Shown here piece by piece: positions 30,001-36,000 of a stretch of DNA of 49,241 nt. The position numbers were made by a program. Where the stretch lies: IMG/VR virus record IMGVR_UViG_2721755711_000006; one strand, written 5' to 3'. Each line of letters starts with the position of its first letter. Within the stretch, counting starts at the first letter, position 1. The stretch is from a virus. Taxonomy: Duplodnaviria > Heunggongvirae > Uroviricota > Caudoviricetes.

Positions 30001-33000
30001 TTAAATATGTGTATACATCTGTATCAGAAATATACAACGTATATCATCACTGAATTAAAAATCTTTCGTTATTTCTCTGACCGTCTGATTAAAACGTTCC
30101 TCTTCCAGTTCCACGCCAATCGCCCTGCGTCCCAGCGACAGTGCCGCTTTTATTGTCGACCCCGACCCCATAAAAAAATCTGCGACCAAATCGCCAGGAC
30201 GGCTGCTGGCAGTAATTATCTGACGCAACATATCCGCCGGTTTTTCACAGGGATGTTTACCCGGATAATACTGCACGGGCTTGTGCGTCCAGACATCCGT
30301 ATAAGGAACAACAGCCGATACGGAAAAATAACGCCGCAGTGATTTGTATTCCTCCAGCAGGCTGGCATATTGCCGGTTCAGTTCGCTGTATGTGCTGACC
30401 AGCTGGTGGTGTGGCTGCTCCAGTTCACCGCGCTGGTGTTTTTCTGCCGCCACACGTGCAAACAGCGCCTGCAGTTTACTGTAATCGGCCTCATTCGGTA
30501 ACTGCCACTGACTGGTACCAAACCAGTGCGAAGCCATGTTTTTCTTTCCGGTGGCTTCAGCTATCTGTTTTGACGTTATCCCCAGTGATTCACGCGCATC
30601 ACGAAAGTAAGCAATCAGCGGGGCCATTACGTGCTGCTTAAGCTCGCGCCCTTTTGCTGCATAACCGTCACTTTTGAGCTGGTATGACCCCTGATAATGT
30701 TCAGCAAACAGAATGCGCTCTGTTGCCGGGAAATATGCCCGTAAACTTTCCTTATTGCACCCGTTCCAGCGTCCGGACGGCTTCGCCCAGATAATGTGGT
30801 TCAACACATTAAAACGTTCACGCATCATGAGTTCGGTGTCAGATGCCAGTCGATGACCACAGAACAGGTAAAGACTTCCGGCAGGCTTCAGTACCCGCCA
30901 GAACTGCGCCAGACACTGGTCCAGCCATTGCAGGTAATCATCATCGCCCTTCCACTGGTTATCCCAGCCCTCAGGCTTCACTTTAAAGTATGGCGGGTCT
31001 GTGACTATCAGATCGACGGAGTTTTCCGGTAAGGTCCGGATAAATTCCAGGCAATCAGCGTTGATTAACTCACAACTGGATATTTTTACAGTATTGGCCA
31101 TAGATCAGTAAGCACTTCTCTGATAGGCTCATACCGCTTTTGCGCAAAGCAGATGGGCCTGAGGTTTGCTTGTGATCCCAACGCATGAGCAGATGGCTGG
31201 CAGGTGCCGCTAACACCCACCAGCCGCCCATTACCACAAATTAAAAAGCCTTCACTGCGGAAGGCGTCTGTAACAACCGAACTGATAATCTGCCAGACCC
31301 GCCATAACAAGCTGGGTCAGTATTAACTGGCAGCGTTCGCGTGAAAGGTAAGTATTCTGCGCAATTTCCCCGACGGTCGCCGGTTCGGTGACGCTTAATT
31401 CATTAAATACCACTCTGGCAGTTTCGGTCATATCCTGCTGTTTTAGCATGCCTTTTTCCCTTTCCCGGTTAACGTGACATACCAATAACTCTTGTCGAAA
31501 AAGCCAGCAAGCTGAAAGACCGGTATTCGCAACCACCAGCGCATTTAACGTCCCGTGTCGTTTTTCGGGCACAAAAAACCCGCCAAACGGCGGGTTTAAG
31601 GAAGGAGTCGAAGCAACCACTCTTAACATCATAATTGAATTTTTACGTACGTAAACCACAAATACGCCACTCAAATGTTAATGCCATATAACAAAACAAA
31701 ACATACGAATAACACATATTACATCAAATACATCATTGTTATTTTTCAATGAAAAATGAGTAAATAATGTATTTCATTAATTAAATTCCGCATTACACAA
31801 AAATATCGACAAATTACACCAACGCGCATAAATGAGATCTTGATCATATTATCAATCACTAAATTAAACTTGCCTCTTGAAATAACCACATTGATTAGAT
31901 GAATATTTATCGCGCAGTGACATCATTTTTTAAAAATAGTTCAAAAAAAAGGGTTCGTGATGAAAAAATTAACGGTGGCAATTTCTGCTGTGGCTGCATC
32001 AGTACTGATGGCGATGTCTGCTCAGGCAGCAGAGATTTATAATAAAGACAGCAACAAGTTGGATCTGTACGGAAAAGTTAATGCTAAGCACTACTTCTCC
32101 TCTAACGATGCAAATGATGGCGACACAACTTATGCTCGTCTGGGTTTCAAAGGCGAAACTCAGATCAACGATCAACTGACTGGTTTCGGTCAGTGGGAAT
32201 ATGAATTCAAAGGAAACCGTACTGAAGAACAGGGAGCAGCCAAAGATAAAACCCGTCTTGCATTTGCAGGGCTTAAATTCGGTGACTACGGCTCCGTCGA
32301 TTACGGTCGTAACTACGGTGTAGCATACGATATCGGTGCATGGACTGACGTTCTGCCAGAATTCGGTGGAGATACCTGGACCCAAACAGATGTATTCATG
32401 ACTGGTCGCACCACTGGTGTTGCAACTTATCGTAACAACGACTTCTTTGGTCTGGTTGATGGTCTGAATTTTGCTGCACAGTACCAGGGTAAGAATAATC
32501 ATGATCGTAGTAGCTTAGATAACTACACCAAAGGCAATGGCGATGGTTTTGGTTTCTCTGCGACCTATGAATACGAAGGTTTCGGCATTGGTGCAACGTA
32601 TGCGAAATCTGATCGTACCGACACTCAAGTCAAATTGGGTAAACTTCTCCCAGGAGTATTTGCTTCCGGCGAAAATGCAGAAGTCTGGGCTGCAGGTCTG
32701 AAATACGACGCAAACAACGTTTATCTGGCAACAACCTATTCAGAAACCCAGAATATGACTAAATTCGCAGATTACTTTGTGGCTAATAAAGCACAAAACT
32801 TCGAAGCTGTTGCACAATATCAGTTCGATTTCGGTCTGCGTCCGTCTGTTGCTTATCTGCAATCAAAAGGTAAAGATCTTGGCATTTTTGGTGACCAAGA
32901 TTTAGTCAAATATGTTGATGTTGGCGCAACTTATTATTTCAACAAAAATATGTCTACATTCGTTGATTACAAAATCAACCTGCTTGACAAAAATGACTTT

Positions 33001-36000
33001 ACTAAAGCTCTTGGTGTAAACACTGACGATATCGTTGCTGTAGGTATGGTATACCAGTTCTAATCTGGTTAATAAAGGATATGCTGAGAAGGTTTTATCT
33101 TCTCAGCATATAAGTGGCTCCCTCAAGCCACTTCTTTAAGAAGCATTAGAGCCCTGCTTCTTACTATCTAAACTTTCTGTTATATATTACCCTTTATCTT
33201 GGGGGTGTTTTTACGCCCCATTTTTTATTAAAAAATAATCGTATTAATTAAGCTTAGTAACATCAATATCCATCTCTAAGCAAATGTCTAATGCCATTAA
33301 CATACCTTCGATTATTCCCTCTGCTTTCTGTAACCTTTTCCCGATATACCCATCAGAGCAATTATGCTTCCGCGCCAGCATCATAAACGTCATCCCACCA
33401 ACATAATAATCCACCAGCAAATCATGTAAGCCATTGTTGCTCTTTTTCAGACAGGCCATACATCCACAAATGATCATCGCGTCATCGTCACAGCATTGCG
33501 GACGAGATCTTACTTTTGAAGGAATTAATCCCTTAAAACCGGCGGCAACGGACGACCAGGTCACATCTTCATGATTATTAGCCGCCCACGCTCCCCAACG
33601 CTCAAGAACCATCTGAATATCACGCATCAGCGCAGTACCTCCTGCACCAGTTTTTCAAACTTTCCAACTTTGGTTTCCAGCTCTGCCACACAATCCACCA
33701 GCTCATCCACTGCTTTTTGTGCGCGGTGTTTCGCCTGCATCAGTTCCCTGAGCGCTGGCACCATATCCTTACGAATGGCATCTTTTGTTACGCCTGTCTT
33801 TTCCAGTTGTTCCGCCTGTCGTAACATTTCCTGTGCCTGTTTACGTAATTGTTCAGGCGTAAAAGTCATGGTCTGGTTGTTCAAAAGAAACGCTCCATCT
33901 TACTGCTGTCGGTTCGCTTATTGCTGTATCTGCGCGGCTGGGGCTGCTGCATTGGGGTGGAAAGAATCTGTGCGCTTTCCTGGTCTACGGGCAGAAAATG
34001 TCCGTTATAAAAACGCCGGTAAATCGTCCCCAGAGAACCGTTACGTTGTTTCGTGATATTGATTTCTGCGATGCCTCTGGCCTGCGTATCCGGGTTGTAC
34101 ACTTCATCCCTGTAAAGCATCAGAATGATGTCAGCATCCGCCTCTATTTCTCCGGAATTTTTCAGGTCTGAGTTCATGGGACGTTTATTTGGTCTGGACT
34201 CCACACCGCGGGAGAGCTGACTCAGCGCAATCAACGGAAAACCACCGGATTTTGCCAGGCCTTTAAGCCCCTTTGAGATTTCACCCACGGCAAGGTCATG
34301 ACGCCCCGTGGTTCGGGTTTTTATCAGCCCGAGATAATCAACCACCACCAGTGCCGTTTCCGGATGTTTAATCAAATGGTGTTTCGTTGTTACGCATATC
34401 TCGTCAATGGTCAGGTTCGCCTGGTCCACCATCCAGATATTGCGTCCGGTCATCAGCTCCACACCCTTAATGAAACGCGCCCAGTCTTCGTCACCAAAGT
34501 TAGAGACAGATTTCAGGCGCGATACAGGCATTCCTCCGGCAGCAGACACCATGCGTTCACCGATCTGAATGTTCGCCATTTCCATTGTGAACAGAAGAAC
34601 ACCGCGCCCCTGTTCAGTCACTTTGTCGATGATATCCAGCGCCAGTTCTGTTTTCCCCATCGAAGGGCGCGCCGCGATGAATATCAGGTCGCCGGGCTCC
34701 ATGCCTCCTGTTTTTGCGTCCAGCTCATCAATACCGGTCATCAACGTCCTGGATTTCTCCAGCCCCTGATTCCGGCATTCAACACGGTCAACCACCTCCG
34801 GAAGTACATCATCAATGTGTACAGGCTGAATAATGCCCTTTTCGGTCGACAATGAGACCATCATGTTTTGAGCATCCTTCAGGGCATCTTCAGCTGCTTC
34901 ACAGGTATGCGCATCACGTAATTTCTGCAATGCTTCGGCCAGTGTTTTTTCTGCATCACGCAGTGCGGCATTGCGTCGCAGTGCTGCAACATAGTGTTCC
35001 AGAGATGACTTCACCCAGGTTTTACGCCCGGTATCAGTAATCACCGGAGCAAGTTCCGGCATCTCATTGCACAACAGCACAGGATCAATCACGCCGGACA
35101 CACGGGCCTGTCTGCAGATGCCTGTGTAGATATCCCGGTACGGTCGTACAGAAAAAACGTCCGCCGGTAGTGTGGCCAGAATATCCATCACTTCCGGATC
35201 TGCCCCACGCAAAAAGAATGCGCCAATAACAGCACCTTCCAGATCATCGTTACGCCAGACCGGACTGTTCTGGCTGATCATGCTGCCACACCTCCGGTAT
35301 GTGCCCGGTAGCTGGGCCAGTTGAAGGACAACAGGTTACGGCCACCATCCGTAACCCTGTCAGCAATACGTGGACTGATGTATGCCCACAACGCCTTCGG
35401 TGAAAGATTGCTGATCAGGATGGTTGGCAGAATACTTTCGTACCGGGCATTGATAATTTCCTGAAGAATGGCCATTTCCGCCGCGCTACCAAACTGGACA
35501 CCCACTTCGTCGATAATCAGCAGATCCAGTGATGCATAATGCTCAATCACCTCATCCGCAGTTTTTTCGCTGTCATTCCGCCAGCAGTTTTTCACAGCCC
35601 GGGTCAGGCGCATCACGTCGGTGATCTCAACACTGGCGAGATAGTTGCGGATGACATATTTTGCCATCGCAACCGCCAGGTGATTTTTCCCGGTGCCACA
35701 ACTGCCAGTCAGCACGAGATTTGTGCCGTTCTCCAGAACATCCGCCCAGTTTTCGGCATAGCGACGACAGGCAGCAAGATTTCTGGCTGCGTCAGGATTA
35801 ATCTCCTGATAGTTTTCAAACTCACAGTCACGAAAACGCAGTGCAATTCCGGCGTTATCAGTCAGTTCTTCCGCCTTCAAGGACGACAACTCCATAATCA
35901 CATCGTTGATTTCAGCACTCAGGCAGTGAGGGCAGTGTGAAATTTTCTCTCTGTCCTCGCCATTACGATCCCCCCACACCAGAATATGCGTGTGATATTC

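Follow-up and report, generated by a model that had tools for sequence, protein, structure and literature searches.

The window, a 49,241-nucleotide stretch of viral DNA (IMG/VR record IMGVR_UViG_2721755711_000006), is a lambda-like E. coli prophage inserted beside ssrA. It carries a complete porin gene of the NmpC/Lc type, placed between the antiterminator gene Q and the late promoter pR' and on the strand opposite to both. We consider it likely, at a little under four chances in five, that this gene forms a self-contained lysogenic-conversion cassette with its own promoter and an IpeX-like 3'UTR, through which the porins of the host would be exchanged. The gene itself is ordinary: an intact copy of a long-known porin that is common beside Q in lambda-like E. 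coli prophages. The features of the coding region and the sequence upstream of it are as follows:

31960..33063, + strand: porin coding sequence, NmpC/Lc type, 367 aa plus stop (Pfam, alignment, dN/dS)
31960..32028, + strand: part coding for the porin signal peptide, 23 aa (mature N-terminus by alignment to solved porins)
31950..31953, + strand: porin ribosome-binding site AGGG (by sequence)
31866..31959, + strand: promoter-proximal region and 5'UTR of the porin (alignment with DLP12/434B nmpC)
31660..31865, no strand: distal AT-rich intergenic region, from pR' to the porin promoter (GC, alignment)

The open reading frame ends at 33063 on the + strand and could start at either GTG 31957 or ATG 31960. 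The latter (MKKLTV...), which has AGGG 7 nt 5' of the ATG, was taken as the start. The Pfam family Porin_1 (PF00267) matched the protein over profile positions 1–337 of 337 (E 8e-152), and the protein was collinear with NmpC, OmpD, OmpC, OmpF and PhoE in an end-to-end alignment that contained no frameshift or truncation. The preliminary description of a complete OmpC/OmpF/PhoE-family porin with a signal peptide thus stands, and can be narrowed: by sequence, the porin belongs to the NmpC/Lc/OmpD subgroup of that family. It is 93–94% identical to NmpC of DLP12 (= qsr', E. coli K-12) and Lc of PA-2, 80% to Salmonella OmpD, and 65, 61 and 64% to K-12 OmpC, OmpF and PhoE, respectively, and at the 90% level it clusters with "outer membrane porin protein LC / NmpC". 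The signal peptide is assigned 23 aa, because in alignment the mature OmpC/OmpK36 chains of solved structures (5o9c, 1osm, 2j1n) start opposite residue 24 (AEIYNK). That the frame arose by chance, or is what remains of a decayed or chimeric porin, is refuted by the full-length Pfam match without stop codon or frameshift, by the conserved C-terminal YQF, and by the 434 public contigs that encode exactly this protein, where it is called "porin OmpC [E. coli]". (PGAP likewise names the gene "OmpC", although by sequence it is of the NmpC/Lc type. In the "NmpC precursor" models, 385 aa long, translation begins at an ATG further 5', which in the present allele is not in frame.)

Residues K39, R60, R99, R150, D130 and E134 were invariant among nine aligned porins, as were the loop-3 PEFGG motif (P133–G137) and the C-terminal Y365-Q366-F367; the pore-lining residues are all conserved. 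Salmonella OmpD and E. coli OmpC, OmpF and PhoE share the PF00267 fold family, the constriction residues and the C-terminal Phe with the present porin, but their genes are part of the chromosomal core, whereas this one is prophage-borne and has distinct loop sequences. The nearest solved structures are Omp36, OmpK36 and OmpC, and from the 61–65% identity to solved porins we infer that the protein would form a trimeric, 16-stranded β-barrel with pore activity. Compared with the closest NmpC-type sequence (P0005) there are 28 amino acid differences, grouped at residues 52, 88–94, 180–191, 225–238, 268–272, 309–310 and 354. These segments correspond to surface loops, and the one corresponding to loop 4 is 2 aa longer than in NmpC. 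At the DNA level, the gene is only about 87% identical to nmpC (dS 0.52). With a dN of 0.03 and a dN/dS of 0.06 against canonical NmpC, the substitution pattern shows strong, long-term purifying selection on the protein.

The gene is followed by a highly structured 3'UTR:

33064..33226, + strand: porin 3'UTR, ipeX-like region (homology to the DLP12 nmpC 3'UTR)
33079..33111, + strand: hairpin 1, a perfect 13-bp stem with a 7-nt loop
33112..33133, + strand: hairpin 2 (3'UTR alignment and folding)
33137..33163, + strand: hairpin 3 (3'UTR alignment and folding)
33202..33226, + strand: intrinsic terminator, stem 33202..33219, T-run 33221..33226 (terminator scan)

This ~165-nt region has a minimum free energy of −60.1 kcal/mol (z −7.9) and is ~81% identical in nucleotide sequence to the 3'UTR of DLP12 nmpC. 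Compensatory changes were found in 12 pairs, with 90% paired versus 41–52% in slid controls. Wobble pairs in the 3'UTR variants were G-U in 17 cases and A-C in 4, which favours a structured RNA on the + strand. IpeX is described as an sRNA from the DLP12 nmpC 3'UTR that represses OmpC and OmpF (PMC12197685), with a reported length of 167 nt; it occupies the same place, between the porin stop and the Q-adjacent terminator. Of the elements shared with the DLP12 IpeX region, hairpins 2 and 3 and the terminator are conserved; compensatory changes preserve hairpin 1. The porin 3'UTR is therefore probably a regulatory RNA, and homology suggests that IpeX activity may be conserved in it. Neither the porin 3'UTR nor the pR' leader matched a family in Rfam at gathering or at permissive thresholds; Rfam appears to contain no matching IpeX or StxS model.

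The 13-bp-stem hairpin that had been noted after the porin is present and perfect, and its role can be refined to that of the first stem of the 3'UTR. It was rejected as the porin terminator, since it has no U-run on the + strand and the intrinsic terminator lies further 3', 140 nt beyond the stop codon. It was also rejected as a bidirectional or minus-strand terminator of the Q transcript: the terminator scan flagged it on the − strand, yet the wobble pairs fit the + strand. It might have a minus-strand role in addition to the + strand structure.

The position of the cassette is defined by Q on one side and a single pR' homologue on the other:

33244..33627, − strand: antiterminator Q, 127 aa (Pfam, identity)
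31570..31655, − strand: homologue of late promoter pR' with its leader (motif, homology to Stx-phage PR')
31655..31650, − strand: pR' −35 hexamer TTTACG (motif)
31633..31628, − strand: pR' −10 hexamer TATGAT (motif)
near 31621, − strand: predicted +1 of pR' (motif)
31597..31576, − strand: hairpin after the pR' leader, T-run to 31573

Q is 87% identical to QuuD of DLP12 and 77% to the 144-aa Q of the Stx2a phage P13374, with which homology stops at about residue 120. The Stx phages (933W, Sp5 and P13374) share this Q family, the PR' hexamers and the invariant leader TAAGAGTGGTT carried by pR' here. The pR' assignment is anchored by the PR'-to-tR' distance of 258 nt in Sakai Sp5 and P13374, because this equals the published mapping (PMC7547250). 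In the Stx phages PR' overlaps the end of Q, whereas here the predicted porin cassette (~31660..33243, ~1.6 kb) parts the Q stop from pR', convergent with Q and divergent from pR'. Being on the opposite strand between Q and pR', the porin is therefore outside the Q-antiterminated late transcript. The same arrangement was found at all 80 related IMG/VR loci, where Q is convergent ~190 bp past the porin stop and the other strand carries the pR' block upstream of the porin.

One could instead place the porin inside the late transcription unit, with pR' right after Q and antisense read-through switching the porin off. This is the geometry given by a plain reading of "Q, cargo, holin", and there is a terminator-like hairpin on the − strand after Q. 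However, the whole window contains a single pR'-like motif, which lies past the porin at 31615..31655. In porin-less Stx phages with a mapped PR', this motif comes immediately after Q. What follows Q here is the 3'UTR of the porin, whose wobble pairs fit the + strand. We regard a late-unit porin as very improbable. Antisense read-through from the early pR transcript is a distinct matter, and is possible.

Beyond pR', the late-gene strand carries a 2.3-kb cargo region (HTH ORF, methylase and tRNA-Gly), followed by the lysis genes:

31252..31449, − strand: first late-operon ORF, a small HTH ORF of 65 aa (100% identical to phiP27 L23)
31265..31240, − strand: terminator-like hairpin after the 65-aa ORF (terminator scan)
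30055..31101, − strand: N6/N4 DNA methyltransferase (Pfam N6_N4_Mtase, E 3.5e-44)
29764..29836, − strand: tRNA-Gly (TCC) (ARAGORN; Rfam tRNA, 54.3 bits)
28081..29285, − strand: lysis cassette (Pfam)
28896..29285, − strand: Phage_holin_8 (Pfam)
28628..28918, − strand: Phage_holin_3_7 (Pfam)
28081..28647, − strand: endolysin, GH108 and PG_binding_3 (Pfam)

As the preliminary description had it, the porin (+) runs opposite to the phage late genes, with Q, methylase, tRNA-Gly, holins and endolysin all on the − strand. It had also given about 4 kb of cargo between Q and the holin; the size was right (3.96 kb from the Q stop at 33244 to the holin start at 29285), but this is not a single block, since pR' lies between the porin and the HTH ORF. 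A late-operon moron such as stx, which pR' drives under the control of Q, should lie past pR' on the strand of the late genes; this holds for the 65-aa ORF, methylase and tRNA-Gly and not for the porin. (A Pfam search of the 65-aa ORF gave no match; L23 of phiP27 is annotated as a "TrmB family transcriptional regulator".)

The location had been likened to that of nmpC in DLP12, and the order there (quuD, nmpC on the opposite strand, then essD) is indeed the one found here. PA-2 carries lc at the equivalent position. DLP12 likewise has the conserved 90 bp 5' of the ATG, a structured 3'UTR and the pR' block upstream on the opposite strand. It differs past pR', in the cargo and in the lysis genes, which are essD-rrrD-rzpD in DLP12 and two holins plus GH108 here. 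Its nmpC is disrupted by IS5, as are the copies in phage 434B and strain SE11, whereas the present copy has no IS5. The Stx phages and phiP27 resemble the present prophage in having cargo (methylase, tRNAs) between PR' and the lysis genes, and phiP27 shares the 65-aa ORF unchanged and has a methylase resembling this one, but its Q-PR' slot holds a GIY-YIG nuclease gene instead of a porin. The stx genes of the Stx phages are absent here.

Upstream of the porin, the very AT-rich region that had been put at ~280 bp measures 297 bp (31660..31956). Its GC content of 0.269, compared to 0.507 for the window, is the minimum among all 297-bp stretches. Megablast homology to porin-carrying phages begins at 31866; the distal region, 31660..31865, is unlike the DLP12/434B version and is common to EC11, and porin regulation may consequently differ from that in DLP12 and 434B. 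A sigma-70 scan of the + strand upstream of the porin found no consensus promoter site. By eye, TTGAAA-N17-TGAATA at 31877..31905 is a weak candidate, which we do not assert as the porin promoter. A CRP-like site at 31833..31848 has two mismatches, and matches in the window were not above chance; we treat it as a lead only.

H-NS could silence such AT-rich DNA, and intact nmpC reportedly stays silent in laboratory culture of E. coli B. We considered that the porin might be intact but quiescent in the lysogen, silenced via its upstream region and carried as a passive rider on the Q module. The upstream GC content of 0.27, the lack of a consensus promoter in the scan and the tolerated loss of the gene through IS5 in K-12, 434B and SE11 are all consistent with this. 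Against it stand the long-term selection on the protein implied by a dN/dS of 0.06 at a dS of 0.52, and the invariance of the module across the 80 loci. Furthermore, nmpC homologues are strongly expressed, as both mRNA and protein, in CFT073 at 37 °C, and strain AW1.7 expresses NmpC at a high level (PMC12890032). A silent passenger is thus rather unlikely, though it has more in its favour than a late-unit porin.

In the conversion cassette that we favour, judging from its anatomy, the porin would be transcribed from its own promoter inside the AT-rich region, and the transcript would run to the intrinsic terminator (33202..33226). A 23-aa signal peptide would direct export of the protein, which would assemble into a general diffusion porin with the OmpC/OmpF fold. 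By homology to DLP12/PA-2, the structured 3'UTR may be processed to an IpeX-like RNA that reduces OmpC and OmpF of the host post-transcriptionally. The lysogen would then swap its major porins for the phage porin, altering the exposure of phage and colicin receptors while keeping its diffusion capacity.

The tail genes have a bearing on which phages such a swap would affect. J, lom and stf are 98–99% identical to their lambda counterparts, and stf is uninterrupted (776 aa); in tail tip and side tail fibre, the latter intact, the prophage essentially matches Ur-lambda. The lambda-type J tip has LamB as its established receptor, and OmpC is a reported receptor for lambda-type side tail fibres, the type that this prophage encodes intact. 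A J tip of the OmpC-binding type, which would have simplified PA-2-style receptor exchange, was rejected, as J is of the lambda type (98% identical); the OmpC idea suits the side tail fibre alone. Because of this, receptor exchange would be limited to the side-fibre step for the phage's own kind.

A more tentative proposal, which we consider less likely than not, is that the NmpC loop variant and the IpeX-like 3'UTR together act as a receptor-exchange device, and that the Q-pR' slot is a general insertion point. If so, the OmpC on which the side fibres of this phage and other OmpC-dependent phages rely would disappear from the lysogen, and the porin gained would, through its altered loops 2 and 4–7, evade NmpC-specific phages. 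The slot would then hold genes whose expression, in the lysogen or together with the early genes, does not depend on late transcription; its occupants are the porin here and the GIY-YIG nuclease in phiP27.

For annotation, what matters is the NmpC/Lc identity of the gene, its place outside the late operon and its probable regulatory 3'UTR; nothing here is new in kind. Prophage porins of the NmpC/Lc type, which are also reported to affect heat resistance, alter the receptors and diffusion channels of the lysogen, and with them host range and the entry of colicins and antibiotics.

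The porin gene occupies a 368-codon ORF on the plus strand (31957..33063) in the ORF list of the window. A GTG at 31957 is directly followed by an ATG at 31960, from which the product reads MKKLTVAIS..., the annotated start in NmpC-type porins, and AGGG lies 7 nt 5' of this ATG. The product matches Pfam Porin_1 over its full length (profile positions 1-337 of 337, E 8e-152) and, in a nine-sequence alignment, is collinear end to end with NmpC-type proteins (93-94% identity), Salmonella OmpD (80%) and OmpC, OmpF and PhoE of K-12 (65, 61 and 64%, respectively). Columns without variation among the nine porins include K39, R60, R99, R150, D130, E134, PEFGG (133-137) and the C-terminal YQF. 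When the product is aligned with the solved structures of Omp36, OmpK36 and OmpC, their mature chains begin at its residue 24 (AEIYNK), giving a signal peptide of 23 residues. The preliminary description of a complete OmpC/OmpF/PhoE-family porin with signal peptide was therefore correct, and alignment with NmpC-type proteins, OmpD and OmpC revealed neither truncation nor frameshift. That the ORF is a pseudogene or arose by chance can be ruled out. The identical 367-aa protein is already public as "porin OmpC [Escherichia coli]" (UniRef A0A0Q1H3W2_ECOLX, 434 contigs) and clusters at 90% identity with proteins called NmpC or "outer membrane porin protein LC". This is a textbook lysogenic-conversion porin, its exact protein already catalogued.

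Compared to canonical NmpC, the gene has dS 0.52, dN 0.03 and dN/dS 0.06; judged from these substitutions, the allele is old and maintained by selection, not a decaying remnant. The 28 differences from P0005, the closest NmpC-type sequence, cluster at residues 52, 88-94, 180-191 (which carries a 2-aa insertion), 225-238, 268-272, 309-310 and 354. These clusters coincide with indel-rich segments of the family alignment, which we take to be surface loops by established porin topology.

The 297 bp upstream of the gene (31660..31956) have a GC content of 0.269, compared to 0.507 window-wide, the lowest of all 297-bp stretches in the window, bearing out the very AT-rich region described previously. 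Conservation with DLP12 and 434B is limited to the 90-95 bp preceding the ATG; the sequence farther upstream is unlike both and common to the E. coli genome EC11. A scan of the upstream region found no consensus sigma-70 site, and the CRP-like site seen at 31833..31848 is no more than a lead. ATG 31899, the start of two 385-aa "NmpC precursor" models (P0002 and P0008), is out of frame here, since the A-run before the ribosome-binding site has eight A's rather than seven, and the comparison argues that the extended models are likely annotation artefacts. The main alternative, which we consider unlikely, is a porin gene quiescent under most conditions; the AT-rich DNA upstream and the frequency of IS5 disruption among nmpC copies speak for it. 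Homologues of nmpC are strongly expressed as mRNA and protein in CFT073 at 37 °C, and strain AW1.7 expresses NmpC at a high level (PMC12890032).

The genes around the porin are all on the minus strand, confirming its opposite orientation:

33244..33627, minus strand, Q (Pfam Phage_antitermQ)
31655..31570, minus strand, PR' block: TTTACG-N16-TATGAT, then GTTAAGAGTGGTT..., then a hairpin and T-run
30055..31101, minus strand, N6/N4 methylase
29764..29836, minus strand, tRNA-Gly(TCC)
28081..29285, minus strand, lysis cassette: Phage_holin_8, Phage_holin_3_7 and GH108/PG_binding_3 endolysin

DLP12 of K-12 has the same gene order, with quuD, nmpC on the opposite strand (IS5-disrupted) and essD, so the porin indeed sits at the position of nmpC. 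The usual companion of nmpC is an S/R (essD/rrrD) lysis cassette; here, two different holin-family genes and a GH108 endolysin gene take its place. EC11 is the sole complete E. coli genome with a 99% DNA match to 31400..33700, while thousands of E. coli genomes and numerous lambdoid phages, among the latter Turner, PhiR26_1, mEp332, ev243, 2G7b and 434B, carry the porin and Q module at 83-88% DNA identity. Q is convergent, ~190 bp past the porin stop, in all 80 IMG/VR loci where the flanks allow.

P13374 and Sakai Sp5, two Stx2a phages without the porin, have the PR' block directly after their Q, which is 77% identical to Q here. In both, 258 nt separate the block from the GCCAGCC...GGCTGGC terminator downstream of it, when the count starts at the seventh base 3' of the -10 hexamer and stops where the terminator T-run ends. 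This equals the PR'-to-tR' distance of 258 nt mapped by dRNA-seq and Term-seq (PMC7547250), identifying the block at 31655..31570 as the late promoter PR' and its leader, which is invariant (TAAGAGTGGTT). The hairpin and T-run lie only ~25-50 nt downstream of PR' here, and an early terminator-like hairpin is likewise present in Sp5 and P13374, whose published tR', at +258, is well beyond it.

The PR' motif is found at a single site in the window. EC11, 434B, DLP12, ev243, 2G7b and 78 porin loci of IMG/VR likewise have one copy each, which lies upstream of the porin on the strand opposite to it. Together with the convergent Q, this position places the porin cassette (~31660..33243) as an insertion between Q and PR'. 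The 127-aa Q here is homologous to the 144-aa Q of Stx phages only up to about residue 120, where the cassette starts. By motif position, the cassette is divergent from PR' and outside the late transcript; a porin within that transcript is contradicted by the location of PR' and is highly improbable. In phiP27, a GIY-YIG nuclease gene (1250..2479 of locus L008) fills the slot that holds the porin here, followed by an identical 65-aa ORF, methylase, tRNAs and stx2e, suggesting that the Q-to-PR' slot is a recurrent insertion point. E. coli A36 has a GIY-YIG nuclease family gene somewhere under its match to the prophage.

The ~4 kb of cargo reported between Q and holin has that extent, but is not one block, since PR' separates the porin from the 65-aa ORF. 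The porin cassette lies upstream of PR', and the 65-aa ORF, methylase and tRNA-Gly, which occupy the stx position of Stx phages, lie downstream in the late operon. Around the tRNA, ~770 bp (29286..30054) contain no convincing ORF; EC11 has DUF3927, TerB-family and hypothetical genes there instead, and MB06231 has tRNA-Gly and tRNA-Thr. Two terminator-like hairpins with T-runs lie just upstream of the holin start, at about 29300..29350.

The 180 bp from the porin stop to the Q stop align with the nmpC 3' regions of DLP12 and 434B. The predicted RNA fold contains:

33079..33111, plus strand, hairpin with perfect 13-bp stem
33112..33133, plus strand, hairpin
33137..33163, plus strand, hairpin
33202..33226, plus strand, terminal GC-rich hairpin and U-run

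The 13-bp hairpin noted previously is thus present, but is not the porin terminator, as no U-run follows it on the plus strand; the terminator scan placed a plus-strand terminator at 33202..33219. The fold has an MFE of -60.1 kcal/mol (z = -7.9 against shuffles). Compensatory double changes occur in 12 of 49 pairs, and 90% of cells pair, compared to 41-52% with partners slid, values reached by no shuffle; with only seven related variants, this covariation is supportive and carries no formal probability. Wobble pairs fit the plus strand (17 G-U versus 4 A-C). The 3'UTR (33064..33226), detected by no Rfam model, corresponds to ipeX, the 167-nt RNA of DLP12.

The window holds a complete-looking lambdoid prophage adjoining ssrA, whose tmRNA gene (698..1060) is on the left; on the far right it encodes a tyrosine integrase (48042..49241), and it also has an S24-type repressor, Rha/Ash proteins and a DnaB-type helicase and loader. 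Apparently integrated at ssrA, the prophage seems to take up almost the entire window. Adjacent Rfam matches at 37980..38168 (minus strand), one to C4 antisense RNA (82.9 bits) and one to isrK (57.9 bits), fall within a called 731-aa ORF (37362..39557) that has Ash and Rha domains in its C-terminal part. They suggest that this ORF is overcalled and that an antirepressor immunity module of P1/P7 or Gifsy type is present. The stretch separating the integrase from the immunity region contains an SPFH/Band 7 gene and an IS110-family transposase gene (44805..46821, plus strand). The tail region (3315..10444, minus strand) is 95.6% identical to lambda (J C-terminus 98%, lom 99%, tfa 94%), and stf is uninterrupted, its 776 aa corresponding to lambda orf-401 and orf-314 without the PaPa frameshift. 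A full-length Rfam IS009 match (206.9 bits) lies within tfa (3336..3534, minus strand).

The sequence shows that the gene is intact, to which family it belongs and that it is under selection, and it shows the layout of the cassette and the structure of its RNA. Our best explanation, with a probability of 0.78, is that the lysogen expresses an NmpC/Lc porin, accompanied by an IpeX-like 3'UTR, which replaces host OmpC and OmpF. The porin would be expressed in the lysogen, its 3'UTR would be processed into an IpeX-like RNA, and OmpC and OmpF would be repressed. Lambda J uses LamB as receptor, and the intact Ur-lambda side fibre uses OmpC. For this phage's own kind, a drop in OmpC driven by the porin and IpeX would therefore affect only the side-fibre step.
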